Source: Vicinamibacterales bacterium
GTDB taxonomy: Bacteria; Acidobacteriota; Vicinamibacteria; Vicinamibacterales; JAMQPK01
Assembly (NCBI GenBank): GCA_963738315.1
Contig: CAVTVT010000004.1
Coordinates: forward strand, 189,043 to 253,042
DNA length: 64,000 nucleotides
Reading direction: 5' to 3'
The notes under the pieces are model-generated. The model did not search any database and was not told the origin of the DNA. It worked only from the letters and a program-made list of their open reading frames with translations. A program made the translations under genes and the position numbers. This document shows, one piece after another, positions 271 through 48,500 of this stretch. Each line of letters begins with the position of its first letter. Position 1 is the first letter of the stretch.

Positions 271-297
271 GTGGCGGAGAGGGTGGGATTCGAACCC
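271..297. repeat. attL-type direct repeat (tRNA-Ser 3' stub, not a full tRNA)
   Basis: Identical to 15493-15519. The sequence beyond 297 cannot form the T-stem or the rest of a tRNA. Confidence 0.8.
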
Positions 298-560: not shown

Positions 561-3515
561 CTAGGCCGGCGCCAACATTGCGACAACGTCCGCGCAGGCA
601 AGATTGGCCCGCTGCAACTTTTCTGGGGCGACCTCCCGTACATGAGCAATCTCGTTTCGGACCGGAGTTATTTGATCGATGGCGCTCTGCAGCCTCCTCT
701 TGGCCTCCGCGTCGCCGCCGAACCTAGCGCGGGCATCCTGCCAGACATCGGGTTTGAAGAGAAGCGCTGGCAGCTGTGCCAGATAAAGATAATCGACAAC
801 ACCGAGACCATCTGCACCGGCCGGCCGATTCCGAGCTGCACGGGCCAACACGTCTCGCTCGCGAGCGTCGAGTGCGCCTTCGATGGCCGCCGCCGCACTG
901 TCCCCAAAACGCTCGCGATAAACGTCTCGAACGATGGCACGGAGCCTCAGCTCTACATCACCAATCCGCTGCCACACAACTTCGGCTCCTGGCAGGAACC
1001 AGGGCGGCAGGAGGGGCGACGCGCTGGCTTCTCCGCCAAGTTTCCGAAACGCGATGCGAATGATCTCGGCCATGCGCGGGCGGCGCGCGGCCAGAAACTC
1101 TTCGTAGCTCATCGATTCCCAAGCGGGTGGCAGCGCGTGCTCCGCGCACATCCTGCCCCACAGGTCGTCGCTGATCTCGAACTTCGCGCGTAAACGGGGA
1201 ACGTATGTTGCGGGGCTCTGGCTTCCCATCGAGCTATTGTCGTACCAACCGACATCAGCGAGGTTCGCAACTTGATTCACCTTCCTCCGCTCAGTGATCC
1301 CGTGCCCATGCAGCCACGCCTTCGGAAACAGGTGATGCATTTCACTCGCCGCGCGCCCGCCCCCGCCTGGAGCTGCGAGCAGATTTCGCAGTGGTTGATC
1401 GCCGAACAACGCCTTGGCGCCGAGGACGACTTGGGCGGCTCGGAAGGCCAGCGCGGCAGGGGCGCGCCCGCGTTGGGTGTCGAGCGCAGACAGAAGAGTC
1501 TGGTTCCAATAGTCGTTCGTCAAGACATCGCCAAGCATGTCGTCCAGAGTCTGCACGAATGCCGTCGGGTCGTCCTTCGACGCGTCGCGCACTCGCCCGA
1601 GATCTTCTTCGTACTTCGTCTCAGACGACCCCGAATAGCGGGCCGTCAAAAGCGTTCCGAAGATCCAGCGGCACACACTCTCTTCCAACCGCTGCCGCTG
1701 GACATTAGAGGTCGTCCCCATGACGTAAAACGCGTAGGCGTTCGTAACGGCGTTCGTTGATGCCACGAGGCCGGGGCTGACGAAGCCCGCAAGCATGACG
1801 CGCAGCATGTAGTCTCGCCAGCGCGTCTCATTGAGGCACTGATCGACCGCCTGATCGAGCACCTTCAAGCGCTCGACTCGTCCCGCAGGATCAGGATCTC
1901 CAGTAACCGGATCAATCCCGCGTAAGTACTTGTAGATGGACGACATTCGCGCCCGCTGAAATCCGACCGCGCATGCCGTGCGTAGGATCTGCTGCGTATC
2001 GACAGGCACGATTGCATTCGTCGACATCGCGCGTGCGCCGGCCTCAATTCGATCACGCAACTCACCATGGAACACGCTCAGCAGGGTAAGCACGAAGTCC
2101 GCCTGGCCAAGGCGCGTACCCTGGCTATTGATGCGGACGAAAATCTCCGCGACATCCTCTTCGCTAATCTCTTCCGCAGTTGCGGTCTTGCGGATTTCGA
2201 CCGTGGGAAATCTGTAGTCCGCGATACCTTTAGCGCGCTCGAGATTCACATACATCGCATCTCTGTAGGCGTCATCGATGACACGACCCCGTTCTTCAAG
2301 CGCCTTAACCATGTCTTTGCGTATCTGAGAGTTTGTTCTAGTACCTCGCCAGAGCTCGGTCACATTTGGCAAGAACTCCGGATCCTTTCTGATGGCGGCG
2401 TCGCACACTTCGAAACGTCCATCCCGGGGTCGAAACGCGATGGAGATGACCCGCTTCTCTCCGTCCTTGTCCTGGATCTCAACGCCTCGCATCACCGCAA
2501 AGAGCGATGTCAGTCGCTGTTGACCGTCGATGACCAGAGTCGTGGCGCGGAGGGCACGATTGGACGCGCCAAGCGCGCGGGCCTCCCGCTCATCCGTTGT
2601 GTACCAGAGCACCAGTGTCCCGACCGGAAACCCGATGAACAGCGAATCCAGGAGCTTCCGGACCTTGGCGTCTTCCCACACGAATGGACGCTGCAGGTCC
2701 GGCAGCGCAATGACGCCGCGGCTGGGATCGATCTCTTCAATCAGAGCCCCGACAGCCCTTTGTCCCAACTCGAAAATTGCGGAGCGACCACATTCTTTGG
2801 GCTCGCGCGACAGCTCGGGTGCATCGTCATCAACTTCCGGTTCGTCGACCTCCTCCGCCGCTTGCCTCGGTTCTGGCTGAGGCAGCTCCCTTCCGACCAC
2901 CTTCGACAGATAGGTGACTACCTCAGGCGCGTGGTCGTCCAAGTCAACGTCTCTGCGTACCCGCGCAATCGCCGCGTCAACGAACTTGGCAAACGGATCC
3001 TTCAACAAGCCCAAATGCGCTGAGACTCGATCTGGCCGAAGGGACAAATAGAGGCCGCCTGCAACCAGCTTCCACGGCTCCTCGTCTTCGCTGCCCACAC
3101 CGAGCAGCGATGATGTCTCTGGAGAAAGTGGGCCGAGCACGCTGACACCGAAGTCATTCGGCTTGATCTGCAACGCCAGCATGCGGCCGGCTTTCAGCTC
3201 AAACCCGCGGCGCGTCTCACTGAACCGCCACGCGTCGCTCCGCTCCTCGTCAACGTTCTCGACTGCATAGGCAACAAACTCCAGCACGGCAGCCCGGATT
3301 GACGGCTCGGGAAGGGCCCGTTCGATCTTTCGTTTGATCCGGGCTTCAATGATCTCTGGATCGGCGTCCGTCGGGTCGTCGTCGTCGTTGAACCTTAGCC
3401 TCAGTGCTGCTGCTTTCGGGCCTATCGACATGCCACGCCTCCTCCCATCCGTCAATGGCCTCCAAGTCTTTCGTCGTAATCTCCAGGGGATGCGCCGCAA
3501 GGAATTCGCGACCAC
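561..3515 (-). CDS. GmrSD-family type IV restriction-like protein (DUF262 + DUF1524/His-Me finger) with extra C-terminal HEPN domain and ~270-aa N-terminal extension
   Basis: 984-aa ORF. DUF262 motifs DLQRPFVW and VIDGQQRLTSL. His-Me-like HHLFPKAWL...NQVANL. C-terminal Rx4H motif RNEIAH (Swt1-like HEPN pattern). The true start may be an internal Met (MSIGPK...). Confidence 0.75.
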   Translation of the reverse strand: MVANSLRRIPWRLRRKTWRPLTDGRRRGMSIGPKAAALRLRFNDDDDPTDADPEIIEARIKRKIERALPEPSIRAAVLEFVAYAVENVDEERSDAWRFSETRRGFELKAGRMLALQIKPNDFGVSVLGPLSPETSSLLGVGSEDEEPWKLVAGGLYLSLRPDRVSAHLGLLKDPFAKFVDAAIARVRRDVDLDDHAPEVVTYLSKVVGRELPQPEPRQAAEEVDEPEVDDDAPELSREPKECGRSAIFELGQRAVGALIEEIDPSRGVIALPDLQRPFVWEDAKVRKLLDSLFIGFPVGTLVLWYTTDEREARALGASNRALRATTLVIDGQQRLTSLFAVMRGVEIQDKDGEKRVISIAFRPRDGRFEVCDAAIRKDPEFLPNVTELWRGTRTNSQIRKDMVKALEERGRVIDDAYRDAMYVNLERAKGIADYRFPTVEIRKTATAEEISEEDVAEIFVRINSQGTRLGQADFVLTLLSVFHGELRDRIEAGARAMSTNAIVPVDTQQILRTACAVGFQRARMSSIYKYLRGIDPVTGDPDPAGRVERLKVLDQAVDQCLNETRWRDYMLRVMLAGFVSPGLVASTNAVTNAYAFYVMGTTSNVQRQRLEESVCRWIFGTLLTARYSGSSETKYEEDLGRVRDASKDDPTAFVQTLDDMLGDVLTNDYWNQTLLSALDTQRGRAPAALAFRAAQVVLGAKALFGDQPLRNLLAAPGGGGRAASEMHHLFPKAWLHGHGITERRKVNQVANLADVGWYDNSSMGSQSPATYVPRLRAKFEISDDLWGRMCAEHALPPAWESMSYEEFLAARRPRMAEIIRIAFRKLGGEASASPLLPPWFLPGAEVVWQRIGDVELRLRAIVRDVYRERFGDSAAAAIEGALDARERDVLARAARNRPAGADGLGVVDYLYLAQLPALLFKPDVWQDARARFGGDAEAKRRLQSAIDQITPVRNEIAHVREVAPEKLQRANLACADVVAMLAPA

Positions 3516-3766
3516 GTTCGGTGACGCCGGTACTGCCTGGGCGCCACCTTCTCGATCAGTCCGCCCTTGGTGAGAAACGTCATGGCCCAGCCCACACGGT
3601 TACGGACGTAGGTCGACTTGCCGCTGGGAATTCGCACCTGGCGATCTTCTGCAGAAAGCCCGAAATGCAGAGCCATCGACTCAGTGGCCGAGACTCGCGT
3701 AACCGGCGCGTCAACCGACAGCGCCAGAATTGGCCTTAACATGGCATCGAGTTTGGGAACATTCAT
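3452..3766 (-). CDS. Mrr_N-type winged-helix DNA-binding domain protein (reading frame apparently broken near 3525)
   Basis: 104-aa ORF. The stretch LHFGLSAEDRQVRIPSGKSTYVRNRVGWAMTFLTKGGLIE fits the Mrr N-terminal domain pattern. After ...APRQYR the expected continuation VTERGREFLAAHPLEITTKDLEAIDGW is readable only in another frame. The ORF overlaps the 5' end of the 984-aa ORF. Confidence 0.55.
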   Translation of the reverse strand: MNVPKLDAMLRPILALSVDAPVTRVSATESMALHFGLSAEDRQVRIPSGKSTYVRNRVGWAMTFLTKGGLIEKVAPRQYRRHRTWSRIPCGASPGDYDERLGGH

Positions 3767-3869
3767 GTGTTCGCCATCCTTAGAATAGGCGTGGCAAGGT
3801 TTGCCAGAAACTTACTCGCCGGCTCAAGCCCGTCACGGTCAACGCATCCCTCGGCCGTGTGCGCGCGAC

Positions 3870-4082
3870 CTACAAGAACCACCAGCGAAGGAGGCTGATC
3901 GACGTCGCCGAGGCGCCCGTGTGTCCGGGGCGGCGCCAAGCGAACACCTCGCGGACCTTCGCGACGAGAGGTGGTAGCCGCTCGTAAAAGGTCTCGCGGA
4001 GCGCCTCGTCAGCCGGGAACCATCGATGGTCGGGCACCAACTCGGCGTAGGACGATTTCGAAAAGTCGGGGTGCAGGGCCAT
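3870..4082 (-). pseudogene. 5' stub (70 codons) of an SF2 helicase / type III Res-like restriction subunit gene
   Basis: RWFPADEALRE...LPPLVAKVREVFAWRRPGHTGASATSISLLRWWF resembles the conserved N-terminus of large restriction-associated helicases. The ORF stops after WWFL and no helicase motifs follow in any frame. Confidence 0.45.
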
Positions 4083-4704: not shown

Positions 4705-7700
4705 CTACTGCGGCGCAGACTCGGGCGAGTACGTGAGGCCAAACACTGTGTCGGTCAGCCAGCGCTTGAACGACTCGTTGTCCATGAACTGTTTGAACAG
4801 CTCCGTGTCATCCTTCAGAACCGCCGTCATCACGCGCGCCAGCGCCTTGTCGTGCTCGATTCTGGCGTTCTGCTTGTCGGAGTTCTTGATTGCGTTCTGA
4901 TATGCCTTGTCGGCAGCCACTCGGTTCGGGATGTCCTCGGTGATCAGCTTGTGCACCCGATCGCCGTCGGTCCACGTGATGTTCCCGAACTGGTCATTGA
5001 AGGTCTTGATGATGTTCGACAGCCGGTCCAGTTCCGGTTCCGGCTTTCGACCGCCGCCTGTGGTGGGCACCGGTTCGATTGACGCGTCCTCGTCCGGCAG
5101 CTGGATCCGCCGCGCGGCTTGCTTCTCCACGCGATAACTGTCCATGTCGATGGCGTCGAGAATGCCCTTGGAAAGGTCCTCGTCGATCGGTGCGGGCAGC
5201 TTGGAGATCAGGAAGTTCAGGAAGATCGAGAGCTTCTCCCACTCGGCATTCGTATACGGGAGGATTGACGCGAGGAAACCGTAGGCGCGGACGAACGCCT
5301 TGGCCTTGCCCTTGAAATCTACCTGCCCATCCTCGCGGAGTTGCGCCTTGTACACGGCGACACAGGCATCGAGAATCGGGTCGAGCTTGTCGCGGTCTGA
5401 CCCTCCGAGGTACAGCCCTACGAGCTCGTCCACCTGGGTGTGGGCGTACACCTCATACCCGTCGAGCGCCGCCTGCAGGTCGTGCAGCTTGTTCGGATCG
5501 GTCTCCTCGCTCAGAATCGTCGTTCGGTAGTAGTCGGCGAACGCCGCCTGGATGGTGTCGGTGTCGTTCATGAAGTCCAGGACGAAGACATCGTGCTTCT
5601 GCGGGTGGGCGCGGTTGAGGCGCGAGAGGGTCTGGACGGCCTTGATGCCGGAGAGCACCTTGTCCACGTACATCGTGTGTAGTAGCGGCTCGTCGTAGCC
5701 AGTCTGGAACTTATCGGCGCAGATCAGGAAGCGGTACGGATCTTCCTGAATCTTGTCCGCGATCTGGCTGGACGGAAACCCGTTCAGCGACGCCTCGGTC
5801 ATCTTGGCGCCGCCGTACTCGTGTTCGCCCGAGAAGGCCACGATGGGGCGATAGGGGCTCTTGCGTTCCACGAGGTAATCGCGGAACGCATGATAGTACT
5901 GGATGGCGCGCTCGATGCCGCTTGTCACCACCATCGCCCGCGCCTGCCCGCCGATCTTGTTGAGCGCCAGGACCTGCTCGTGGAAATGGTCGACCATGAT
6001 TTCCGCCTTGAGACGGATGGCATGATCGTGGCTCTCAACGTACCGACGCAACTTCTTGGTCGCGCGCTTCGTATCGAACTCGGGGTCGCTCTGGACGGTC
6101 TTGACCAGCCGGTAGTGACTGCCAATCGGCGTGTATTGCTTCAGCACGTCCAGGATGAAGCCTTCTTGGATGGCCTGCTTCATCGTGTAGCTGTGGAAGG
6201 GCTCGTGGCGCACCTTTCCGTCTATCGGGGGCAAAGGCCGGCCGAAGATCTCGAGTGTCTTGTTCTTGGGAGTGGCGGTGAAAGCAAAGTAGCTCGCGTT
6301 CGGTAGGAGCTTCCGCGCTTCCATGATGCGGTTGACACGGTCCTCCGTCGTTTCGTCGTCTTCTTCCGCTCCTGCGACGGACAACGCCATGCTGATAGCG
6401 GCCGAGGTCTGACCGCCCTGGCTCGAATGCGCCTCGTCGATGATGATCGCGAAGCGGCGGCTGCGTTGCTCGTTGCCGATTTCGTCCAGGATGAACGGAA
6501 ACTTCTGGACCGTCGAAATGATGATCTTCTTGCCGCTCTCAATGAACTTGCGGAGGTCGCCCGAGTGCTCGGCGTGGCCAACCGTCGCACCCACCTGCGC
6601 GAATTGCTTGATCGTGTCGCGAATCTGCTTGTCCAGGATGCGACGGTCGGTGACGACGATGATCGAGTCGAAGACCGAGGCATCGTCTTTGCGGAGGCCG
6701 ATGAGCTGATGTGCGAGCCAGGCGATGGAGTTCGATTTGCCGCTACCGGCGGAGTGCTGAATCAGATAACGCTGGCCGGCGCCCCGCTGTTGCGACATCT
6801 GCGAGCAGCCGGTGCACCACGTCGAGCTGGTGGTACCGCGGCCAGATCTGGACGGCCTTCTTCTTGCCAGTTTTGTCGTCCTTCGTTTCGACAACCTGCG
6901 CGTAGTTCTCGAGGATGTCGGTCAGGCCCTCCCGGGTGAGCAGGCGCTTCCACAGGTAGTCGGTCTTCAGGCCATCGGGGTTCGGCGGGTTGCCGGCGCC
7001 ATCGTTCCAACCAAGGTTGAACGGCAGGAACCACGAGCTCTTGCCTTTCAGGTGCGTGCAAAACCGCACCTCGTGGTCATCGACGGCGAAATGAACAATG
7101 CATCGCCCGAACTCGAAGAGCTTCTCGCGCGGGTCGCGGTCGCGCTTGTACTGCTCCACCGCGTCGTCCACCGTTTGCTTCGTCAGGCTGTTCTTCAGCT
7201 CGAAGGTCGCGATCGGCAGGCCATTGATGAAGAGGCCGAGGTCAAGCGCCCGTTGAGTCTCGTTGCGGCTGTAACGGAGTTGTCTCGCGACGGAGAAGCG
7301 ATTTTGGGCGAAGCGCTCAACGGCGACTGCGTTACCTGGTGAGGGGGTTCCGTAGAACAGCTCCACATGATGCGGACCGTCTTTGATCCCCTTGCGCAGA
7401 ACGTCAATCACGCCCCGTCTGCTGATCTCGCCCTGCAGCCGCGCCAGGAACTTCCGTCGGGACGGGCCATCCTCTGAGAGGTTGAGGCCGTCGAACGCAT
7501 CTGGCTGGGTCTCGATCAGGAAGGCCAGGAGTTGAACGAGATCGACCGTGTACTCCCTGTCGTAATCGTTCGGATTGCCGCAGAGCCAACCTGCGCCACC
7601 GACCGCGACGGAGGTCTCGCTCTCCACATCAGGAGAGATCGGGACCGGATCGCAAACGCCGCCTGTGAGCGCAACACAAATGAGTTGCTCCAGGCCGCGT

Positions 7701-7720
7701 TCGCTGGTGTCAGTGGGCAT
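4705..7720 (-). CDS. hsdR: Type I restriction enzyme R subunit (HsdR), frame broken at the C4 run 6782-6785
   Basis: ORFs 6743..7720 and 4705..6894 join as ...HRLLADVATAG/AGQRYLIQHSAGSGKSNSIAWL (Walker A). N-terminal PD-(D/E)xK nuclease motif LDLGLFINGLPIATFELK and QYKRDR. DEAH-like IIIDEAH. Long HsdR-type C-terminal domain. Confidence 0.85.
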
Positions 7721-8765
7721 CTGTGAGTGGTTTTATCCATCCCCGCGCGGTGAGGACGCCGAGCGCAAGTCCGACCTGTCGAGGCGAGAATTGTTTCTTC
7801 CTTTCGCCCCAAGCGTAGACAGCGGCCGTCACCTCCGCATCGGTTCGCGCTGACGTGCGCGTCGACACCCAATGGACCGTCGACAAGAGCTCCAGCCCGA
7901 ACGGAGACTCGAAACCCTGAACAAGGTCCGCGACGCGGTCGAAGCGAGCGTGCGTGTCGGCGTGCCGGGCGAGAAAGTCTTCGGCCTCATCGACAGCGCC
8001 AGGAACCAACGTCAACTCCTTGTCTGGAGCATCTCCTCCGTCGGCGTAACCCGCTACGTAATATCCTTCGATCTCCTTGAGGACGTGGCGAAGATTCTCA
8101 GCGTACGGACCGTAAGGGGCCGCTGCGAAGCGAAGCCGCAAGGGTTCGCCAGCCTCCTGCATGAAGTACATCAGTTTGTGGACCTCGAGCAGCGTCACGA
8201 ACGGATCCAGAAGGCCACCGAGATACCGACGCACCAATCCCACGAGCGCTGCGCGGCCAGGAGTCATCGTCGGCACCTTGCCGGTGTTTCTGGCCGGCGT
8301 CGAAGATGGCGAACTGTGAGGCTCGAACACTGTCACGTGCACGTCAGGGAGCGCACCCAGAGTCGCTTCGATTCGCGGTCGTACGTCAGACCAGTTCAGG
8401 CCTCCCAGCCCACTGCCGAGTGGTGGAACGGCGATCGAGTGAATTCCTCGGGCGCGGATCTCCCGCACGAGATCGACCAACCCTGCATCGATGTCCTCAA
8501 TCCGGCTCTTGCCGCGCCAGTGCCGCTTCGTCGGAAAGTTGATGATGTACTTCGGATCAGACATGAAGCCCGTTTCGAAAACGAACATCTTACCGGGCTG
8601 CACCTCGCCTCGTACGCACGCCGCCTCGTACGCCTTGAAGTTCGCCGGGAACGCGTTCTTGAACTGCAGCGCCACACCGCGTCCCATGATCCCGACACAG
8701 TTCACGGTATTGACGAGGGCCTCCGCCTGCGTCTTGAGAATGTCTCCGCTCTTGAACTCAATCAT
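7710..8765 (-). CDS. darG: DarG antitoxin (DNA ADP-ribosyl glycohydrolase: macrodomain + C-terminal DarT-binding domain)
   Basis: MIEFKSGDILKTQAEALVNTVNCVGIMGRGVALQFK...INFPTKRHWRGKSRIEDIDAGL...IAVPPLGSGLGGLNW is near-collinear with the DarG macrodomain as I recall it from Mycobacterium. The ORF is open up to 8792. The stop overlaps the hsdR start by 11 nt. Confidence 0.85.
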   Translation of the reverse strand: MIEFKSGDILKTQAEALVNTVNCVGIMGRGVALQFKNAFPANFKAYEAACVRGEVQPGKMFVFETGFMSDPKYIINFPTKRHWRGKSRIEDIDAGLVDLVREIRARGIHSIAVPPLGSGLGGLNWSDVRPRIEATLGALPDVHVTVFEPHSSPSSTPARNTGKVPTMTPGRAALVGLVRRYLGGLLDPFVTLLEVHKLMYFMQEAGEPLRLRFAAAPYGPYAENLRHVLKEIEGYYVAGYADGGDAPDKELTLVPGAVDEAEDFLARHADTHARFDRVADLVQGFESPFGLELLSTVHWVSTRTSARTDAEVTAAVYAWGERKKQFSPRQVGLALGVLTARGWIKPLTDAH

Positions 8766-8779
8766 GTCGGTTGCCCCGG

Positions 8780-9052
8780 TCAATAATACCAATCTGTAAG
8801 GATCTCGACGGGTGGTCTATGGGTCAGCCCACGGAGAGCAGTTGCAACCTGTTGCGCAACCTGTTGTGACCTGACACCGACCCGGCGAACCAGTTCCCAA
8901 GGGAAAGATTCATGCACCAGGAACTCGGCTTGCTTGCCCTCCTTCACGTCGGGCGACCGAAAGTCGTGCGCTTGGACCGCTGGCCAGTTCACCTCATGGA
9001 GGCGGTCGACCTGCGCTCGAAACTGAGCATAGCGTAGTAGTAGTCCTGAAGT
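8780..9052 (-). pseudogene. darT: DarT (DUF4433 DNA ADP-ribosyltransferase) C-terminal remnant, about 70-90 of about 210-230 codons
   Basis: ...RYAQFRAQVDRLHEVNWPAVQAHDFRSPDVKEGKQAEFLVHESFPWELV...PPVEILTDWYY matches the DarT C-terminus, including the catalytic-Glu AEFLV motif and terminal WYY. The frame is closed by TGA at 9053-9055. The only start is a GTG at 8992 overlapping the upstream stop (GTGA). The N-terminal NAD-binding half is absent. Confidence 0.75.
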
Positions 9053-10839
9053 TCATCATCGAATCCATCGAGCGCGATGCTGTTCGCGTCGGACGCCTCA
9101 GCAAAACTCGGACTGTTCGGGTCGAGAACCCCTGCGAAGTACACCCCCAAAAAGTCCCATTCGTCGTGGAGATAGAAGCGCCCATCCTTTTGAACCGCGT
9201 ATCGGCGATAAAGGTAGTCGAACAACTGGGAGGGAAGTTCAAGGCTCTCTGTCACGACACGGAGATCCGCGAGCGATAGCGCCCAAGGATATGCACGGTC
9301 GACAAAAAGACCAAGTGGAGCGAGGCTCGGAAGATTGGCTGCGATGGATGCCCACGCGCCGGTTCCCACCAATGTCACCAAGAACACTTCCGAGATTTCA
9401 GCGCGGCGTACGACAATCTTACGCCCGGTCCTCTTCTCCTCGAACTCGACAGACGCCGCCCCCTGAATGTAATCACGAGCCCGCTTGGCCTGGTCGAAAG
9501 GCTCTAGGATCGCTTTCGCCAGATCGTTAAGGATCGCGGGCACGTCACCCGCCAGTGCGGCGAGCGTTGGGCTCTTCGATTTACATTCGATCAAGATCAA
9601 CTTGTTGTCGTAAACCGCGATCCCATCCAGCTCGAGTCTCTCCTTCTTCGGCCCATAGTAGAGACCCCAACCGCACTCGGCTCTCAGAAGAAGCCGCTCA
9701 AGAGCAGAGACTGCAGATGACTCCAGCCACTCTGCGCGCGCATTGTCATACGTTGTGCGATAGCTCTTGTCTGCAAACAACTTCGTATGAAATGCGTAGA
9801 AGATCGCCTCAGAAAGCCGTGGCGGCACGAACAAGTAGTATCGGTCCCCGAACTTGACGAACGGCGCAAAAGCAAAGGGATTCAGCTCGACCGCGCTCGG
9901 TTCACCGCTGATCTTGTCGCCGGCGACGCTAAGCAGCGTCAAGAACGGCAGAACGCGTTCCGCGGCGACTCGTCCTTCACAACGCCCGCGCAGCTCGTCT
10001 TCGGTGAAGCTGATGATGGTGGGCGCCTTGAAGAACAACCATATGATGCTTAGGGTCTTTGCGAATTGAGATCCACCTGTGATCAGACTGCCATCTGCAA
10101 CAGCCTCGCGAATCACAACGGGAAACCCCTCAAGATGATGCGTCACGGACTCATGATTGTGTTCGACATCCTTTTCAATTTCGCGCGAGCGGGCTCGAAG
10201 ATCGGCTATTTTGTCGGATACGCCTTCGCCGATGATCTTGGCAATTTCGAACGCGTCTTGTACCGGCAGGCCAAGGTTGGTTAGGCACCACGCCTCATGA
10301 GGTGAATAGAGCTCGACCGCGAGCCCTTCGATCTCGTTGGCATAACCGAGGCCGCGAACGAACACCGCCTCGGTCTGGATCCTCGCTCGAAGCTCGTTCT
10401 GCTGCGCGTCAAGGGCCGGATCTCGGCCCATGAGCGAGAAGACAACGGTCCTGAAGTAATCGTCCAGCAACCGCTCGAGCGCGCTTAGAAATCCTCCGTC
10501 GATGACAGCTGGCCGCTCCGGTGAAGCGATCTTGCGCGATAGCGCCAACCACGCAAGCCACTCGATTTTGGCCTGCCATCGAGCCCTCTCATTCCGATCG
10601 TTCGCCGCGTCAATCGCGTGCGTTTGATACAGCACGGTCAGATGCGACAGCAGCTCAATTGGATCTACGGTCCGAAGCAGCGCCTCAATTTCGGAGACGA
10701 TTCCCGGTAGCCGATCACGCTGCTCCTGCGCGAGAGCGTTCACATCGAGAGTTCGTCGTCGGTCATTCTCGTTGCTCACGTCTGCTCGCCAGCTGTACAT
10801 GCGCGACGTTCCCGCAACTTCATCACGAAGAGCGCCCAA
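8989..10839 (-). CDS. Uncharacterised 596-616-aa protein with PD-(D/E)xK nuclease-like core
   Basis: Long ORF with ordinary composition. Candidate nuclease motif ELDGIAVYDNKLILIECKSK (D...ExK). A GTG at 10779 would overlap the upstream stop as GTGA. Confidence 0.6.
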   Translation of the reverse strand: MGALRDEVAGTSRMYSWRADVSNENDRRRTLDVNALAQEQRDRLPGIVSEIEALLRTVDPIELLSHLTVLYQTHAIDAANDRNERARWQAKIEWLAWLALSRKIASPERPAVIDGGFLSALERLLDDYFRTVVFSLMGRDPALDAQQNELRARIQTEAVFVRGLGYANEIEGLAVELYSPHEAWCLTNLGLPVQDAFEIAKIIGEGVSDKIADLRARSREIEKDVEHNHESVTHHLEGFPVVIREAVADGSLITGGSQFAKTLSIIWLFFKAPTIISFTEDELRGRCEGRVAAERVLPFLTLLSVAGDKISGEPSAVELNPFAFAPFVKFGDRYYLFVPPRLSEAIFYAFHTKLFADKSYRTTYDNARAEWLESSAVSALERLLLRAECGWGLYYGPKKERLELDGIAVYDNKLILIECKSKSPTLAALAGDVPAILNDLAKAILEPFDQAKRARDYIQGAASVEFEEKRTGRKIVVRRAEISEVFLVTLVGTGAWASIAANLPSLAPLGLFVDRAYPWALSLADLRVVTESLELPSQLFDYLYRRYAVQKDGRFYLHDEWDFLGVYFAGVLDPNSPSFAEASDANSIALDGFDDELQDYYYAMLSFERRSTASMR

Positions 10840-12140
10840 GGATCAGTCTCCTGGTCGGCCGGCATGAAGGAATTCCATTCCTCCGAGAAGTCGGCGACGT
10901 CTGAGCTGGATCGCCAACCCTTATGCGGCGCGACAACCTTCCCGGCATAGCCGAGTCGCATCAGCACGCGCCGAAACAAGAAGAGCCGCCATTTGTCAAA
11001 GAGCAGACGGAATTCCGTGCTGTCCTTCGTCGGCAGCTCCCCACCGTGCATGACGGCGTTTCTCAAGAGCCGTATGGTATGTCGCGCAACGTAGTGCTTC
11101 GGAACATCCCAACCGAGATGCTTCCGGGCCGCGCCAATCAGTTCGAGGAAGTCTCGCTTCGCCACCCACTCTTCAGGCTGCCCCTGTTCGACAAGGCAGT
11201 TCCTCATGAAGAACTCGAGCGCCATGATCAGTGAGGCGAATTTCTGCTCCAGATAGGGCGCGTCCTCAAGCGACCCGCAATGGCTGGCCAGCCGTCGCCA
11301 TGCGGGATGGGCGCGCTTCATCTTCACGTATTCGTTAAAGGCCACGCGGAAGAACTCGGGAATATGGATGTCGTCGACGATGCCGTTGCTCCGGTAGTGC
11401 GATGTTACGGGCTGCGGAAGCACGCGGCGGACGATCGCACCGTCACCGTCCAGCAAGTCGACCATGGGCACGCAGACGCCCGCACCCGCTGCGAAGGTAC
11501 ACAGGCCCGCGACGTCGGTGCTGAACGCCAGCACCTGATCGTCGGATTCGCCGGGGGCCAAATCGACGCTAAATTCCGTAAGGGAGGCCGCCTGCAGAAT
11601 CCCGGCCTTGACGAGGGGCAGGATATCCTTGCGGAGGCGGTGATGGCGAAACGCGACGCGGCGATCGTCGACATCGACGCTCAGGGGCGTGCCGATTCTC
11701 GTGAAGCCCCTGTCTTCCGTGATTGCGTCCCCACACCTATAGTCGAAGTTGTTGAGCAGAACCGTGGCCGTGGCCGCCGGACGCGCAGGACCGTACTGCA
11801 CACGCGCCGGGCAGTTGACAGGGGAAATCAGGCTCCATCCGCCGGGCCCCGAAGCGCCGTCGGTTTGACCATGGACATAGCATCGTGGGCACTCCATGCG
11901 GAAGGGACCGGAGTCGCTACCGCCGTCAATGACTAGGTCGGTCCCGAAATCCTGCGACGTTTGGTCGGTGGCTGTGTGGAAGGCGACGATGGCCTGCCCG
12001 TCAGCGGGCAACAGGAACTCAGCGAAACCGGAATAGACGGTCTCCCCCATGCGAAACGTGGCCGAGCCGCGATGGGACGACAGCCGGGCGTACTCCCGAT
12101 GCGCGGTGACAGGCGGATACGTAATCGGTTCGATGGTCAT
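10776..12140 (-). CDS. ApeA-like protein: beta-rich N-terminal domain + C-terminal HEPN
   Basis: 454-aa ORF. C-terminal Rx4H motif LLRNAVMHGGELP embedded in helical sequence. The architecture resembles Apea-like HEPN defence proteins. Confidence 0.55.
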   Translation of the reverse strand: MTIEPITYPPVTAHREYARLSSHRGSATFRMGETVYSGFAEFLLPADGQAIVAFHTATDQTSQDFGTDLVIDGGSDSGPFRMECPRCYVHGQTDGASGPGGWSLISPVNCPARVQYGPARPAATATVLLNNFDYRCGDAITEDRGFTRIGTPLSVDVDDRRVAFRHHRLRKDILPLVKAGILQAASLTEFSVDLAPGESDDQVLAFSTDVAGLCTFAAGAGVCVPMVDLLDGDGAIVRRVLPQPVTSHYRSNGIVDDIHIPEFFRVAFNEYVKMKRAHPAWRRLASHCGSLEDAPYLEQKFASLIMALEFFMRNCLVEQGQPEEWVAKRDFLELIGAARKHLGWDVPKHYVARHTIRLLRNAVMHGGELPTKDSTEFRLLFDKWRLFLFRRVLMRLGYAGKVVAPHKGWRSSSDVADFSEEWNSFMPADQETDPWALFVMKLRERRACTAGEQT

Positions 12141-12180
12141 GGGCCTACCCTAGATGTCCCTCTCCTGTGTACTTGGCAGC

Positions 12181-13286
12181 CTACGCGGGGGCGTTCGGCC
12201 CGCGTGGGCCGCCACCCAGTCCGCGCAACGTGGCTCGAAACGCGTCGAGTTCCGCAATGACGGCTTCGACGTACGCGGAACCATCGGCTGAGCGGAGGAA
12301 TTCCATTTGCGCCTTCCAGCCTGCCGCATGTGCGCCCGTTGTCCACATGACTGCGGAAACCGCGTCCATGAGCGATTGGTAGCGCGCCTGCGTCATCGTT
12401 TTGCGAAGAGCAGGACGACTTTCATTGCTAAACTTCAGCACGTACCGAGACATCACTTGAAGCCTCACAAGCTGTGGCGGATGTGTTCGCCGATACACCG
12501 TGTCCCGCGTGAGCATTTCAGGCTCGCGAAGAAAAGTGAAGCCCGCCTGTGCGACGATGAAACAAGCGAAGACAACGTCGTCTTGAACCTCAGATGGTGA
12601 GTTTTCGATATTCAGAACCTCCGAGGCAGCCTGTCGTCCACTCGCCGTGATCCAATGCGCAAGAGCCAAGTAAGCCGCCCAACCGTCGGCGTCAAGCTCC
12701 CGAGCTTGTCTTCTCAAGTTGCCAGTCAGTGCACCACCGATGATTTCCTCGACGTCGAATGCTCCATCCAAGTGTCCATGCACGTGATGGGCGTATTCGT
12801 GTGAGATGACAAAACCCAGCAACATCCAGAAGAGCAACGTGCGCAGCACATCGCGATCACTCGCTAGTGACAAGCCGATGCCGGATACGACCGCGTCGGA
12901 TGCGGCAAGCGCCCATGCAACGTTCACCACGTCGAAGACGAGGGGAACGGTGACCCGATGAACGAGTGGTTCGCGTCTTTGAACGCCAGCGCATTCGACC
13001 GGTCAGAATCGATGAAGTCCAAGTAGAGCGGCGAGTGTGGGGCATCTCCGTTGATGTTCTGTCCTTCGACTGCCAATGCACCATTGAACGACTGGCGAAT
13101 CTCCACCAATTTGTCGATGAACGTGCTGAGCGACGAATCTCGTTGTCGAAGCTCCTCGAGATCGGCGATGCCGCGGTAGTCAAAATTGTTCCGACTTTTG
13201 ATCGCCACGTCGAACGCAATTTTTTCCGCAGACGGCACCATACAGTTTCTCGGTTTCCGAGCACCTCTTGGAGTGTAACGCTGCAC
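12181..13286 (-). CDS. HExxH zinc metallopeptidase, ImmA/IrrE-like (frame broken at 12954-12956)
   Basis: ORFs 12924..13286 and 12181..12930 join as ...NALAFKDANHSFIG/VTVPLVFDVVNVAW.... Motif SHEYAHHVHGH followed by ELDADGWAAY. The likely start is the internal Met at 13241. Confidence 0.55.
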
Positions 13287-14134: not shown

Positions 14135-15407
14135 TTATTTGCGACCCCCGGAGATTCCCACCAGCTTCGGCTTCTCTCTGTAGGCTTTCTTGAACATTCT
14201 GGTCAGGCGTTCCTGCCGCTCAGGGACCCAGGCGCTGTAATGAAGCGCGACCGTTTTCGGATCGTCGCCGAGCGCCATCGCCACATCGTCAATGGAGTTT
14301 CCATCCTGGAGGAGACGGCGCGCAAAGGTGTGACGGAAACGGTGTGGGGTCGGCTCTTGTTCGAAGGGGCCAGCGGCTTCGAACGCCTGAGCAAGACGCC
14401 GCCGCCAGACGTTCGTGACGGTCTCAAGGCGTGTTGATTGGCCGATGATGAACGGCCGCGACCCATGCAGTTTGGCGCGTGCGGTCAATCGGTCGCGAAC
14501 ACGGTCGGGAAGCCACGCAAACACATGATGGCCATTCTTCTGCGCTCGGATCATCACGTTATTGCCCTGCAATCGGCTCATGTCGAACAGCGTCGCATCT
14601 GAGATGCGGAAGCCCGTGTGCACCATCAGCTCGATCAAGTCTTTCAAGTCTTCGCCGGTCCACGAGCCCGCTCCCTGCGCGTTCTTGTACTCGCAGCCGA
14701 CGTGGCCGGGACTGCGGTCTCGCTGACGCATCGGACGCGGCGGGTTGTCGCACGCCCTCATGATGCGGCTCAGTTCCTTATCGCTGAACGGCATCTTGTC
14801 GGCGCTCTTACTGGAGCCGACCGGAGGTTTGATGTCGGAGCTGATCGGCGTTTCGGACATCCACTTCCGGTTGACGGCGAAGCGGAAGAAGGCGCGCAGG
14901 ACGCCGAGGCGGGTTCCTTTCGTGCGCGGACCGAGCTTCAGTCCCGCGTAGAACTGGTCGGCATCGGCCGGCGTGAACTGGTCGATCATCACGTAGCCGC
15001 GACCGTCGGCATATGCCGTCAACTGTTTCGTGAACGTCCGATACTTGCGGAGGGTCGCGGGGGCAATCTGGCGCGCTCTCGCGATTCGCGATGAAGATGC
15101 TGGTGGCTTCCTCGATGGTGATGCGGGCCGGCGTCGCAGGCGCGTCCGGTGCCGGCACCGCGGGTGCCGGTTGATCGCTCCAGTTGCCGACGGCTTCGAT
15201 GGCTGCCGCGTAGGCGCGGGCTTCGTCCCAGGTCGTCGCGCCGGTGCGTTTGCGGCTGAAGCGTCCGGCAAGTGTGCCGGAGACGAAAATGACGCACGCG
15301 CAACGTTTCCAGCCACGGGTACGCTCGGCGAATTCACCCGAGTTCGAATCCTCCGCGCGGCCGGCTTCGCAGTCTTTCCGATGGCGGCGGTAGAGGTTCA
15401 GCGCCAC
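14135..15407 (-). CDS. int: Tyrosine recombinase / phage-type integrase (frame broken near 15065-15075)
   Basis: ORFs 14808..15407 and 14135..15337 join as ...IFIANRESA/RQIAPATLRKYRTFTKQL. C-terminal catalytic motifs HRFRHTFARRLL and LHYSAW. The start lies 87 nt from the tRNA-Ser 3' end. Confidence 0.85.
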
Positions 15408-15492: not shown

Positions 15493-15519
15493 GTGGCGGA
15501 GAGGGTGGGATTCGAACCC
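15493..15519. repeat. attR-type direct repeat inside tRNA-Ser
   Basis: Identical to 271-297. Confidence 0.8.
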
Positions 15520-15582
15520 ACGTGCCCTTTCGGACAAGACGCTTTCGAGGCGCCCCCGTTACGACCACTTCGGTACCTCTCC
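15494..15582 (-). tRNA. tRNA-Ser (anticodon CGA), CCA encoded
   Basis: Reverse complement GGAGAGG...GGCGC-CTCGAAA-GCGTC...long variable arm...GTGGGTTCGAATCCCAC-CCTCTCC-G-CCA folds as a class II tRNA. Confidence 0.9.
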
Positions 15583-24627: not shown

Positions 24628-27600
24628 TCAGAACACGAACTTCAGCCCCACCTGCACCTCGCGCATCGGCTTCCGCGTGCTCGTGATGGTGCCGAACGTG
24701 TTCGGGTTCGACATCGACGTGTTCGGATCGTTCCACACCGGCTGGTTGAAGACGTTGAACGCCTCCAGCCGGAACTGGATGCTCCGAGTGCCGCCGAATC
24801 GGAAGTTGCGGATGATCGACGAGTCGAAGTTGAAGATACCCGGCCCGATGACGATGTTGCGTGGCGCGGCGCCGTAGACGTATTGATCGTTGCGGACGAA
24901 GGCGTCGGTGTTGAACCACTCGTCGATCGTCTTCGGACCGTTGTTGGGATCCTGTCCGGCGACGAGGTTCGGGCGGTCATAGCCGGCGCCCGTATTGGTG
25001 CGATCCGATCCGCTCGTGACATTCCGAGGAAAGCCGCTCGACACGCTCGTGATCGTGGTCACTTGCCAGCCGCCGAGAACCGCCGCGCCGACGCCGGACT
25101 GCAGATGCGATTTGCCTTCGCCGAATGGCAGCTCGTAGAGCACCGATACGCCAGCGCGGTGCCGCGCGTCGAAGACCGACAGTCCCCACTCACACTCGAA
25201 GCAGTTGCTGTTCTGCGGGAACAAGGGGTCGCCACCCAGGGTACGGATACCGCTGCCGTTGTCTCGCGACTTCGAGAACGTATAGCCGGCGAGCAGAGAG
25301 AAGCCGTTCTCGAGGCGGCGGGTCAGTTTGATCGCCAGCGAGTTGTACCGGGACTCCGCCACGTTGCCGATCTCTTGAATCTTCGAGAACTCGGGATAGG
25401 GCCGCCGGGTGGTGACCAGGCCGGGACCTGGCGTCACCTCGTTGCCGTCGAACATGCGCTCGAGGCGGTAGCTGCGCGAGCCGAGGTAGCCGACCTCCAG
25501 TGCCGTCGATCGGTTGAGCTCGCGCTGGATGTTGAAGACATACTGGATCATGTACGGCGTCTTTCGATCGTACATGTTGCCAAGCACATAGTGCTGGGTG
25601 ATGCAGACCAGCGGCGCCGCCACACCGCAGGCGTTCGAGGTGCCGCCGCCGATGAACGGGCTCCCCCAAGTCAGCGTGGTGTCGGCGTTCCCCAGGTTCG
25701 CCGTATCCTGCCGGCGGCCGGCCGCGTTGCGCGCCATGTCGAACCGCGGGTTGCCGGTGTCCTGCATGAAGAAGACGCCGGCGCCCGCGCGGATCGACCA
25801 CGCGGAGCTCGGCGTGTACGCCCATCCGAATCGCGGCGCGAAGTTCTTCTTGTCGTCCGCGATCAGTCGGTCGCCCATGCGCCCGTCGCGGGCGGTCTGG
25901 ATGGCCGGGTTGAAGCGGATCGGCGAGTCCTCGTAGAAGTCCCCCTCCCCAATCCGCACCAGCGTGGGATGCCGCGCCGGGTCCGCCACCGGTCCGCCGG
26001 TGTCCCGGTACGGCAGGGAGGCGTTCATCAAGGTGCCGCTCTTGTCCAGCCACGGCGGCGTGTATTCGTATCGCAGGCCCATATCGAGCGTCATGTCGCC
26101 GCGCAGCCGCCAGGTATCCGTAAAGTAGTACGACTGGCTGAGCGCGCGGAACTGTGTGACGGCCAAGGCGACCGACAATTCCGACTGACGCATGTAGCCG
26201 AGCAGGAAGTCGGCGAACGCGTTAGGGCCCGGAACCGGAGCCGTGCCCCCCATGGTTCCCGTCGCCCTGCCGTCGAACGAGAAGCCGCCGCGCGGGAACT
26301 GGTTGCCCACCTGGTTGAACTGGTCGGCGCGGATCTCCGCCCCGACTTTGAACGAGTGCTGGCCCCGAATCCATGACAGGTTGTCGATGAACTGCAGGGC
26401 ATGATTGCGATTCGTGTATGGGCCCTCCGTGCTGTCCCCGAATCCGTCGAACCCCGTGATGCCCACGCTCGGAATGCCCCACGCCTCGGGCGGAATCTTC
26501 ACCGTCCCCGGGACGTTCAGCTCCGAGACCACGTCGCGCACGAACGCCAACTCGCGGCCGTACGTGTTGAAGAAGTAGTTGTAACCGAACCGGAACTCGT
26601 TGACCACGGTCGGCGTCAGCGTCCGCGTGTTGCCGATCATCACCTGGTGTTCGTGGTTGAGCAGCTTCGTGCCGTTCAGCTTGAGAGCCGGCTGGATTTC
26701 GTCCTCACGCCCGTAGCTGTAGCGACCCATGAAGGTCGACGAGGCGCTCTGGACGAAGTCGATCCGCTGCGTGAACTGGTTCTTGTTGATCACCCGGTTC
26801 TGGATCGACAGGTAGTTGTTGACCGTGGCTCCCGGCACGGTCGGGCCCGGATAGAACTCCAGCAGTTTCTTCGAGGTGGGATTCACCCGGTTGGCGGGAA
26901 TCTGATTCCCCGGGAACGTGTCGCAGACCCGGCTGCCGCCGCCCAACGTGCAGCTTGCGGGATCGATCAGCGGCGCCGAGAGCGAGGAAAAATCGCCAGC
27001 CCGCATCGCATCGGTCGGCACGTCGTACAGATTCTGGAACTGCTTGCGGTCCTTGTAGCCCTCGAAGTTCGACATGAAGAACAGCTTGTTGGTCCAGATC
27101 GGTCCGCCGGCGGTGTAGCCGGTACTGGTTCCACTTGAACGGCGCCTTCGGCGCGGCCGCCTGCGAGGCCGTGAAGGCGTAGGGGCGCGCGTCGAGCGCA
27201 TCGTTGCGGAGGAACTCGAAGATCGTCCCGTGCAGCGAGTTCGTGCCCGACTTGGTGACAACGTTCACCTGGCTCGCCGCGCGTCCGAACTCGGCCGAGT
27301 AGACGCCAGTCTGCACCTTGAACTCTTCGAGCGCGTCGACCGACGGCAGGAAGATGTAGGTGTTGAAGTTGACGTCCGTATTGTCGACCCCGTCCAGCGT
27401 AAAGTTATTGAACTCCCGCCGCTGACCGGCGACCGACAGCTGCTGATTGGCGCGCGTTCCACCCTGCCGGCTCCCGGCCTGGCCCGCATTCGCGAACTCC
27501 GCGCTGACGTTCGGGCTGAGCGCCACGAGCTGCAGGTAGTTGCGGCCGTTGAGCGGCAGCTCGACGATCCGCCGGTTCTCGATGACGGTGCCGACCGTGG

Positions 27601-27979
27601 CGTTCTCCGTCGTGATGAGCGGCGCCACACCGGTCACCATCGTCGTCTCCGACACCGTGCCGATCTCGAGGCCGAAATCGACCCGCAGCGTCTGCTCGAC
27701 GTGCAGCTCGGCCGGCAGCGTGCTCGTCTTGAACCCCTGCAGCTCGGCTTTCACCGAATAATTGCCGGGCGGCAGCGCCGGAAAGCTGTAGATGCCGGAC
27801 GCATTGGTCTGCACCCCGCGCGCGGCGTTGGTGCCGTTGTTCGTGACCGTGACCGTGACGCCGGGGATGACCGCCCCCGACGAGTCCTTCACCGCACCCG
27901 TGATGGTCCCGAGCGTCTGCGCGACGCCGGGCGCGCAGAGCAGCAGCCAGACGAACCCCGTAAGCAGGCCTCGATACAT
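24628..27979 (-). CDS. TonB-dependent receptor with CarboxypepD_reg domain, tandem paralogue A (frame broken at 27119-27122)
   Basis: MYRGLLTGFVWLLLCAPGVAQTLGTITGAVKDSSGAVIPGVTVTV.... ORFs join as ...PFKWNQY/GYTAGGPIWTNKLFF.... C-terminal ...VGLKFVF. Confidence 0.85.
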
Positions 27980-28381
27980 GACGATCTCCTTCTGAGGGAA
28001 ACGGCGCAACCCGGGCGAGAGCCGACGCGATATCCACACGGCAGCGTGCCTCCTACCGGAAACTGGGATATCTCACGACTGAAAAGGTGGCTGATTCTGC
28101 TGGTGTGCTGCTCTGGCGAACATCCTGTCCGGGCTGTAATTGCGCTCCAGACAATCAGGACGCACGAAGAGCGCCCTCCGGGAGTTCCGTCCCCGGCGGA
28201 AATCCCCGTAAGGAACCGCTTGCCTGAGCGGCGTCGAGGCGGGAGCGAAGAAGAATTCCTGGAGGAAGCCGCCCCCAGGCATCATGTCCAGTCGGGATGG
28301 AGCGCCCGTGGAGCTGAACGAGAAGCGGCCGGCGCTTGCCTCAGCGGCAATCGCCGGCCGTGGTCAGAGCGAGGAAGCTGA

Positions 28382-31300: not shown

Positions 31301-31724
31301 GCAGCTCCACGATGCGCCGGTTCTCGATGACGGTGCCGACCGTGGCGTTCTCCGTTGTGATGAGCGGCGCCACACCGGTGACCATCGTGGTCTCCGACAC
31401 CGTGCCGATCTCGAGGCCGAAGTCCACCCGCAGCGTCTGCTCGACGTGCAGCTCGGCCGGCAGCGTGCTCGTCTTGAATCCCTGCAGCTCGGCCTTCACC
31501 GAGTAGTTGCCGGGAGGCAGTGCCGGAAAGCTGTAGATACCCGACGCATTGGTCTGCACGTCGCGCGCGGCATTCATGCCGGTGTTGGTCACCGTGACCG
31601 TCACACCGGGGATCACCGCCCCGGACGAGTCTTTCACCACACCCGTGATGGTCCCGAGGGTCTGCGCAAAGGCAGGCGCGCAGAGCAGGAGCCAGACGAA
31701 CCCCGCAAACAGGCTTCGACGCAT
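28382..31724 (-). CDS. TonB-dependent receptor with CarboxypepD_reg domain, tandem paralogue B (frame broken at 30864-30867)
   Basis: MRRSLFAGFVWLLLCAPAFAQTLGTITGVVKDSSGAVIPGVTVTV.... It has the same junction sequence and the same extra base as paralogue A. Confidence 0.85.
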
Positions 31725-31964
31725 GGCAGTCTCCTTGGTGAGGGGAACGGAGCGACGAGGGAATCGATACCCGTACCACGGCATGCGCACCTCATACCGG
31801 ATTCCTAGGATATCTGACGGACGGAGGATGGAAGATTAGGCCCGCCGAGACTGGACGTCAAGCGGATTCTGACGAAAAATCATGGCAAAACAGGAGTCCG
31901 CAGCGGTCCGGCGCGAGCGCGCCGGCCGCTGCGGAATGCGATCCAGAAGGTCGGATAGACGACG

Positions 31965-47635: not shown

Positions 47636-47645
47636 GATGGCGCTC

Positions 47646-48500
47646 CTATCCGACAACTACCTGAACGCGTTTGTCGCCGCGGATGATCTCCACGGTCGGG
47701 GGCGGCGGCGCGATCGGAGCAGGGGCTGCCTGCGTCCCCTTCGCGGCCGGGCTCGACCGGCGAGGCGCGGCCGCCCGGGGCATGGGCGCCGAACCGACGA
47801 GCGCGCTCTGACGAATGCCTTGCGTGACGGGCGTAGCGGAGTCGAGCGGATTGCGCAGCGCGAGCTGGATCTTGCCCTCGGTGCTGGCCAGCGTGAGCCG
47901 CTCAGCCTCCTCCGGGGTCACGAGCAGCGTCACGACCGTGACCTGCACCGGCTTGCCCTCGTCGCCGTTCTGCTCGAGCCGGGTGCCGGCGGTCAGCACC
48001 TCCACGTTGGAGAGCACCACCTTCGAGGTGACGTCCTCGCTCCGGTTGCTCGGATTGGCGGTGGCCACGACGTCCACGTGCGTGCCGGGCAGGACGTATC
48101 CGGCTACGCCGATGACCTCGTTGACCCGCACGGACACCGCACGCTGGCCGGTCGGGATGATCGGCGGCAGGCCGCTGCCCGCCTCCTTCGACGCGAGCTT
48201 GCCGGGCAGAATCGGCTCGTTCTTCACGACCGAGGCGATGAGGCCGCGCCCGACGACCGTCGACAGGTCATCGAAGGAGCCCTCCGGCACCGCGGACGCC
48301 GGCCAGTCGACCACCGCCACGTCGTCCCGGCGGAGCTCGCTGCCGAGCGCCAGATTGCTGCTGGCGACCACCACCGGGCGGGTCGGCATCGACACGGTCT
48401 TGACCGGGACGTTCTGCATGTAGCTGCGGGTGGCATAGGCGAGCCCCCCGCCGCAGACGAGCGCGAAGAGCAGCACGATGAGAATGCGTATGCGGGTCAT
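47646..48500 (-). CDS. cpaB: Flp pilus assembly protein CpaB (SAF domain)
   Basis: N-terminal TM helix, then ...VVVASSNLALGSELRRDDV...RAVSVRVNEV...PGTHVDVV pattern. Confidence 0.8.
   Translation of the reverse strand: MTRIRILIVLLFALVCGGGLAYATRSYMQNVPVKTVSMPTRPVVVASSNLALGSELRRDDVAVVDWPASAVPEGSFDDLSTVVGRGLIASVVKNEPILPGKLASKEAGSGLPPIIPTGQRAVSVRVNEVIGVAGYVLPGTHVDVVATANPSNRSEDVTSKVVLSNVEVLTAGTRLEQNGDEGKPVQVTVVTLLVTPEEAERLTLASTEGKIQLALRNPLDSATPVTQGIRQSALVGSAPMPRAAAPRRSSPAAKGTQAAPAPIAPPPPTVEIIRGDKRVQVVVG

Follow-up and report, generated by a model that had tools for sequence, protein, structure and literature searches.

The stretch of DNA analysed here, referred to as the window, comprises 64,000 nucleotides of contig CAVTVT010000004.1 from a Vicinamibacterales bacterium. 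Positions 561..3766 on the minus strand of this window probably represent one gene and not two, encoding a single-chain enzyme of ~1067 amino acids (aa) from a GmrSD/BrxU-like type IV restriction subfamily. The gene lies on a 15-kb island at a tRNA-Ser gene, and the two frameshifts that interrupt it are most likely assembly errors. The modules follow each other in the order Mrr_N, alpha/beta domain, acidic linker, DUF262, helical linker and predicted His-Me nuclease, and the chain ends in a helical domain whose RNxxxAH motif is invariant.

Gene Organization and Reading Frame

Two open reading frames (ORFs) are present on the minus strand of this region in the ORF list of the window: one of 984 aa at 561..3515 and one of 104 aa at 3452..3766. 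A first-pass annotation of the same DNA had described both correctly, and had also noticed that the expected continuation of the Mrr_N domain is found in another frame after ~3525. This continuation (VTERGREFLAAHPLEITTKDLEAIDGW...) is indeed readable in a second frame at 3391..3525, which closes near 3345. The single frame change proposed near 3525 has to be replaced by two lesions, at 3526-3529 and 3390-3392. DNA alignment with two intact relatives, L003 (encoding P0002, 1065 aa, 88% identical) and L001 (encoding P0001), reveals exactly two extra bases in the window gene; both relatives are one base shorter at 3526-3529. Deletion of one base per site yields a read-through product of 1067 aa without an internal stop. 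As a tblastn query, this product (residues 1-1067) gives a single in-frame alignment to six close loci at 87-91% identity, and ~25 fetched loci are aligned in the same uninterrupted way over residues 1-1064. Residues 1-28 of the 984-aa ORF are not real protein, as the DNA of the Mrr_N end and the linker is translated there in the wrong frame.

The region is read as one gene because the read-through contains a complete Mrr_N and its homologues carry this domain fused in frame. Mrr_N and GmrSD_N are located on one chain of ~1060-1080 aa in 99 of the best 120 homologues. The first-pass annotation had left the choice between a damaged small Mrr_N gene and a four-module protein split by indels, and had suggested a search for in-frame fusions among orthologues. 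The outcome of that search favors the split protein, as the orthologues are single proteins of this length with a fused Mrr_N. The idea that Mrr_N is normally encoded by a small gene of its own was rejected, the domain being fused in frame in most relatives. The features of the gene are as follows.

561..3766, minus strand: whole gene, 1067 codons plus the stop codon at 561..563 after removal of two extra bases
3764..3766, minus strand: start codon ATG, with AAGGA upstream
3527..3766, minus strand: frame A, Mrr_N winged helix, residues 1-80 (Pfam)
3526..3529, minus strand: first extra base, CAGTACC[G]GCGTC, frame A to frame B (DNA alignment to L001 and L003)
3391..3525, minus strand: frame B, end of Mrr_N and linker VTERGREFLAAHPLEITTKDLEAIDGWEEAWHVDRPESSSTEAKV, aligning with P0002 residues 81-125
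3390..3392, minus strand: second extra base, AAGGT[T]CAACG, frame B to frame C
2880..3362, minus strand: alpha/beta domain of unknown function, with two helices, a six-stranded sheet and a long helix (AlphaFold2)
2718..2879, minus strand: acidic linker predicted to be disordered, then a helix leading into DUF262 (predicted local distance difference test, pLDDT, <50 at model residues 179-216)
2085..2717, minus strand: DUF262 / GmrSD_N, a ParB-like nucleoside triphosphatase (NTPase; Pfam PF03235), with DLQRPFVW, KLLDS and DGQQR
2676..2699, minus strand: DLQRPFVW motif
2514..2528, minus strand: DGQQR motif
1365..2084, minus strand: helical linker of the GmrSD core, collinear with the BrxU linker (hhalign)
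1032..1364, minus strand: predicted His-Me (HNH-type) nuclease region, the DUF1524 equivalent (hhalign to BrxU)
1323..1337, minus strand: HHLFP motif, followed by invariant Asn residues
564..983, minus strand: all-alpha C-terminal domain, probably a Swt1/Abi2-like HEPN (HEPN_Swt1 match, AlphaFold2 model)
642..659, minus strand: RNEIAH motif

The GmrSD/BrxU-Like Core

The center of the protein is a GmrSD/BrxU-like core, in agreement with the first-pass annotation, whose four motifs (DLQRPFVW, DGQQR, HHLFP and RNEIAH) were all located. GmrSD_N (DUF262, PF03235) matches the 984-aa ORF with 99 bits (cut-off 33.2; E=4e-28). A core profile, built from the window protein and 24 stand-alone relatives, was aligned by hhalign to BrxU of plasmid pEFER (L084:18711-20471). 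This gave a probability of 99.7 and E=2.3e-26 over 503 columns, with profile positions 10-578 on BrxU 5-579. The motifs are paired in this alignment: RPFVW with REFVW, KLLDS with RLFDS, DGQQR with DGQQR and HHLFP with DHIYP. DUF262 and the predicted His-Me domain are thus parts of the same polypeptide, with a long helical linker between them, and are collinear with BrxU. BrxU needs D474 and H475 of DHIYP to cleave DNA and to resist phages, and its function depends on the dimer state (PMC8565348). On the side of the window protein, H700, F702, P703, N723 and N732 are invariant in an alignment of 30 diverse relatives.

The claim of a DUF1524-type His-Me motif stands as far as the position of HHLFP on the BrxU DHIYP is concerned, but a match to a DUF1524 profile was not obtained. 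Two results speak against the assignment. Neither Pfam (PF07510) nor PADLOC recognizes DUF1524, even in the isolated region at E up to 10, and the His-Me stretch has a low confidence in the AlphaFold2 model, where the folded segment cut the domain. The predicted His-Me nuclease is well supported by profile alignment to BrxU, and not by curated models.

N-Terminal Modules

The 104-aa ORF, interpreted earlier as an Mrr_N-like winged helix-turn-helix, is confirmed as such by Pfam (E=2e-13), with a match that ends at model position 74 of 87. In the read-through, Mrr_N (PF14338) covers model positions 3-86 of 87 with 62 bits (cut-off 29.5). The Mrr_N part also matches the PADLOC model mREase_IV (E=1.4e-10).

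The ~270 aa left unassigned at the start of the 984-aa ORF turned out to be partly out-of-frame sequence; what remains is one well-folded alpha/beta domain and the acidic linker. The alpha/beta domain, separated from Mrr_N by a short acidic stretch, is modelled by AlphaFold2 with a pLDDT above 90 over model residues 10-170, and is kept in relatives down to ~20% identity (alignment A4). No Pfam or PADLOC profile matches it. The best Foldseek match in the PDB is YjbR (2fki), with a non-significant E=0.03. The same domain is also found in relatives without Mrr_N and without HEPN; therefore, the modules have been shuffled independently. The acidic linker region is variable and gapped among relatives (alignment A4).

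The C-Terminal HEPN-Like Domain

The C-terminal domain is probably a HEPN domain. HEPN_Swt1 matches 25 of 26 aligned relatives at E<=0.1, with a best value of E=6e-6. In P0128, the match extends over model positions 15-114 of 115 (E=3e-4), P0137 matches HEPN_SAV2148, and eight homologues are labelled PF18731 in precomputed annotation. Four residues of RNxxxAH (R, N, A and H) do not vary in sets of 19 and 13 relatives with 31-43% domain identity. The AlphaFold2 model of the domain is all-helical, with a pLDDT of 80-95. The HEPN proposed by the first-pass annotation is made probable by these recurrent family matches and the invariant motif; the match of the window protein itself is sub-threshold and the structural search is non-significant.

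These latter points weigh against a HEPN domain. The window protein reaches only 14-17 bits with HEPN_Swt1 (PF18731), below the Pfam cut-off of 27.5, and the isolated domain reaches E=0.009. Every member scanned individually remains below the Pfam gathering threshold. Foldseek of the C-terminal model against the PDB returned nothing at E<=0.001. Among its top three are the HEPN protein AbiF (8vz6) and 2q00, at a non-significant E of ~2. The latter is a Sulfolobus protein that we take to be HEPN-like. The same model has no significant match among viral structures, and a C-terminal profile searched against PDB sequences produced chance coiled-coil matches only. A homologue search with a HEPN-only profile revealed no new architectures; its hits were for the most part short pieces of proteins from this family.

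Such scores could also mean that the domain is not an RNase but a dimerisation or regulatory module, or a non-catalytic nucleic-acid-binding HEPN-like module, which would reduce the enzyme to a simple type IV DNase equipped with additional sensor domains. We consider this rather unlikely. In its favor, one relative, P0136, carries a D at the position of the His, catalytically inactive HEPN domains such as that of eukaryotic Swt1 are known (PMC3710099), and the dependence of BrxU on its dimer state (PMC8565348) would suit a tail that serves dimerisation. Against it, invariance of R, N, A and H at only 31-43% domain identity argues for selection on a catalytic motif, and HEPN versions fused to DUF262 and HNH were scored as 'active' in the 2013 survey (PMC3710099).

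Frameshifts in the Gene and across the Window

On indirect evidence, the two frameshifts are most likely a systematic assembly or base-calling artefact, and the source organism probably carries an intact gene. Metagenome contigs that are 97-99% identical to the window at this place lack both extra bases. The base at 3391 is absent from metagenome contigs of runs X5, X6 and X12, and the base at 3527/3529 from those of runs X3, X4, X6 and X12. The window as a whole contains at least six one-base insertions in its 64 kb, and the genes hit include two outer-membrane-protein paralogues, a secretin and hsdR. An artefact is clearly favored over independent mutations because of this number of insertions, some of which affect core genes, while three share the same context.

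This context is the 10-mer CAGTACCGGC, which occurs exactly three times in the window (3526..3535, 27118..27127 and 30863..30872, minus strand). At each of these sites a gene that is intact elsewhere undergoes a +1 frameshift; the genes are the restriction gene and both outer-membrane-protein paralogues. The form carried by relatives, CAGTACCGC, has zero occurrences in the window. Both paralogues are split at Pfam model position 41-43. One-base deletions restore ORFs of 1136 and 1135 aa in the paralogues and of 642 aa in the secretin gene. Distant homologues of the outer-membrane proteins in Illumina metagenomes lack the extra base. The CAGTACCGGC pattern resembles a motif-specific insertion error, perhaps one connected with methylation in long-read data. 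The second insertion in the restriction gene (3390-3392) does not lie in a repeated motif, which speaks against the artefact. Two exact-pattern searches of the metagenome contig collection, one for the first frameshift site as it stands and one for its form lacking the additional base, had no hits. The plot of GC content at third codon positions (GC3) by frame was too noisy across the window to map frameshifts; Pfam on suspect ORF pairs was used instead.

The outer-membrane-protein paralogues (24628..28039 and 28382..31790, minus strand) are arranged in tandem, consist of CarboxypepD_reg and OMP_b-brl_4 and have 85% DNA identity. The secretin gene (45727..47656, minus strand) has its extra base in TACCCCGATCG, at ~46730, where removal of one C gives the restored ORF. 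The gene for the type I restriction subunit HsdR (4705..7720, minus strand) is split by one extra base in the G run GCGGGGCGCC, at ~6790.

Frameshifts are also found in 13 orthologous loci, at scattered positions; ~9-10 of these come from long-read metagenome-assembled genomes (MAGs), judged by record names. Frameshifted orthologues in species-representative genomes include L020 (5568..8820), L021, L026, L030, L031, L034, L036, L037, L041, L042 and L049. L020, from an Illumina-assembled Casimicrobiaceae MAG, has its frame shifted within the Mrr_N C-terminus.

Real and recent frameshifts in the restriction gene, which would leave a 104-aa Mrr_N fragment and a 956-aa short form from ATG 3431, perhaps functional, are improbable. 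Such a short form would resemble the natural Mrr_N-less relatives of ~920-945 aa (P0010-12, P0128, P0132) and the loci whose matches start downstream of Mrr_N, and the remainder of the long ORF is stop-free. L020 shows that Mrr_N is read in another frame in an Illumina MAG as well. ATG 3431 lies 5 bases downstream of the Shine-Dalgarno-like GGAGGAGG, but these bases simply encode the conserved DGWEEAW. Both insertions are missing from the 97-99% identical contigs, the first one sits in the 10-mer that marks two other frameshifts in paralogues only 85% identical, and one-base insertions interrupt core genes of the window too. Hence, the broken Mrr_N of the first-pass annotation is probably not a biological feature.

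That all three window copies of CAGTACCGGC coincide with +1 frameshifts in otherwise intact genes might also suggest a biological origin, either a programmed +1 ribosomal frameshift or a motif-specific mutation or phase variation switching several genes. We regard this as extremely improbable. Neither the relatives of the restriction gene nor those of the outer-membrane-protein genes have the extra base, and the other insertions occur in unrelated contexts, including G4 and C4 runs, consistent with sequencing error. Slippery tRNA re-pairing does not seem apparent at UAC-CGG-C. Programmed frameshifting was rejected on the basis of the relatives without extra bases and the lack of an apparent slippery site. 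For annotation, the split restriction, outer-membrane-protein, secretin and hsdR genes point to motif-specific assembly indels and not to pseudogenes.

Family Size and Modularity

Relatives of the protein are encoded at at least 458 loci in a search of one genome per species. An exhaustive cluster search resulted in 353 cluster representatives (50% identity) at E<=1e-30. The hosts belong to Acidobacteriota, Alphaproteobacteria (Bradyrhizobium, Methylocystis, Vineibacter), Gammaproteobacteria, Myxococcota, Actinomycetota (Mycobacterium), Gemmatimonadota and others. In the set of 26 aligned members, Mrr_N is found in 25, GmrSD_N in all 26 and HEPN_Swt1 in 25. A scan of NCBIfam gave no meaningful match.

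The family is modular. Besides the full-length proteins, it comprises Mrr_N-less forms of ~920-945 aa, proteins with other N-terminal extensions and stand-alone cores of ~590 aa. The stand-alone cores cover ORF residues ~250-826 and have no HEPN. Nine fetched loci are devoid of Mrr_N, their tblastn matches starting at query residue 111-151. Some aligned relatives have other C-terminal modules, which suggests that the C-terminal modules of the core relatives are exchangeable. In the core relatives P0152, P0160 and P0240, a GEG..VEFKES...GGTLFIGV domain stands in place of the HEPN tail. It is presumably a DNA-binding domain of the AlbA_2/Schlafen type.

Genomic Island

The restriction gene is the last gene of a 15.2-kb island at tRNA-Ser(CGA). 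The region is a tRNA-integrated island, with an integrase beside the tRNA and a 27-bp direct repeat at the far border.

271..297, no strand: distal att repeat, matching 15493..15519 inside tRNA-Ser at all 27 bases (E=5e-9)
15494..15582: tRNA-Ser(CGA), with the 27-bp repeat as its 3' end
14135..15337: tyrosine integrase, adjoining tRNA-Ser

The island contains a full-length DarG antitoxin gene (7710..8792, minus strand; macro domain, PADLOC E=1e-136), with no DarT gene beside it. The DarG stop codon overlaps the hsdR start, and no hsdM or hsdS is found near this hsdR. Three ORFs of 616, 454 and 249 aa (8989..12930, minus strand) have no Pfam family; the 616-aa ORF is weakly similar to models of CARF-associated PD-(D/E)XK nucleases (E ~1e-6). 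Directly upstream of the Mrr_N start lies a remnant ORF of 70 aa (3870..4082, minus strand), which we take to resemble a type III Res/helicase protein in its N-terminal part. Contigs of 95% identity differ by four indels near this remnant, at 3828, 3875, 3886 and 3946.

No conserved partner gene was found in the neighborhoods of the orthologues. These neighborhoods vary, and the genes in them include those for toxin-antitoxin systems, Fic, ArdC, KAP NTPases and integrases. The lack of a conserved partner and the richness in mobile elements fit a stand-alone, horizontally moving defence gene. In the best public sequencing run, 57% of the words of the restriction gene are present vs. 7% of those of a chromosomal stretch, and none of the runs holds the whole window. 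The presence in public runs of close relatives of the restriction gene, and of almost none for the chromosome beyond the island, suggests horizontal spread.

Proposed Mechanism

By homology with BrxU and GmrSD, DUF262 would bind and hydrolyse NTP and control the oligomeric (dimer) state, and the His-Me finger would cut DNA. Mrr_N, and perhaps the alpha/beta domain, may bind modified or foreign DNA. One chain would, in this arrangement, combine DNA sensing and an NTPase-based switch with a DNase and a probable HEPN RNase.

The anticodon nuclease PrrC is reportedly held latent by the type I enzyme EcoprrI and serves as a back-up when the restriction enzyme is neutralised. PrrC is inhibited by protein-protein interaction, and the HEPN active site requires dimerisation (10.64898/2026.02.22.705581). 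As HEPN needs to dimerise, the C-terminal tail may couple the oligomeric state to RNA cleavage, with the RNase site formed in the dimer. By analogy with PrrC-EcoprrI, the RNase might be either a second effector or a fail-safe that responds to a blocked DNase. In the latter case, the DNase would be stalled by a phage inhibitor or by a substrate that it cannot cut, the dimer state would change, and the resulting RNA cleavage would lead to abortive infection, Mrr_N and the alpha/beta domain setting a new specificity for modified DNA. This complete scheme, drawn by analogy, is speculative and rather unlikely to hold in all its parts. The protein bears on the question of whether a single polypeptide can link the restriction of DNA to an abortive defence at the RNA level, and of what the alpha/beta domain may sense.

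Comparison with Known Systems

GmrSD, BrxU, SspE and HEC-06 are established anti-phage nucleases. To our knowledge, none of the studied GmrSD-type enzymes carries an RNase. The window protein is best filed as an experimentally uncharacterised variant of the GmrSD/BrxU type IV restriction enzymes, which is widespread and has been catalogued computationally.

All 587 residues of BrxU (pEFER, Escherichia fergusonii; PDB 7P9K) are collinear with ORF residues ~250-830. Both proteins share QR/RPFVW, K/RLxDS and DGQQR in DUF262, the helical linker and, in the predicted His-Me region, the aligned HHLFP/DHIYP and the downstream Asn, and both are single polypeptides in a defence island. In contrast to BrxU, with which the identity is only ~22%, the window protein has no DUF1524 profile match and possesses ~340 additional N-terminal residues (Mrr_N, alpha/beta domain and acidic linker) and ~150 C-terminal ones (HEPN), and its gene is not embedded in BREX. 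With GmrSD and Eco94GmrSD (E. coli), SspE and HEC-06, it has the combination of a DUF262 NTPase and a (here predicted) HNH-type DNase in common. The PADLOC matches to SspE and HEC-06 are weak, and that to the BrxU-like HEC-05 is stronger (10.1101/2024.01.29.577857).

The additional domains described in 2015 for members of the GmrSD family are DUF4268, DUF4357 and DNA_binding_1; Mrr_N and HEPN are not among them (PMC4619093). Anantharaman et al. (2013) include, among the Swt1-like HEPN fusions, "ParB (DUF262) with HNH (VNG7073), active" (PMC3710099). The window protein shares DUF262, a predicted HNH nuclease and a probable Swt1/Abi2-clade HEPN with intact Rx4H, as well as the restriction context, with VNG7073 as catalogued there; the Mrr_N and alpha/beta modules are not mentioned in the entry. 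No experimental work on a fusion of DUF262, HNH and Swt1-like HEPN was found in the literature. The architecture, which the first-pass annotation did not recognise as characterised, is indeed experimentally uncharacterised, but it was catalogued in 2013.

With the E. coli type IV restriction enzyme Mrr, the protein shares the N-terminal Mrr_N winged helix, and it lacks the PD-(D/E)XK catalytic domain of Mrr. The likeness to PrrC-EcoprrI, by analogy only, consists of a HEPN RNase (probable in the window protein) that is physically coupled to a restriction enzyme. PrrC and its type I restriction-modification partner are separate proteins, whereas the probable HEPN of the window protein is covalently fused to a type IV-like DNase. 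If the tail did act as a fail-safe, the enzyme would be a single-chain counterpart of PrrC-EcoprrI.

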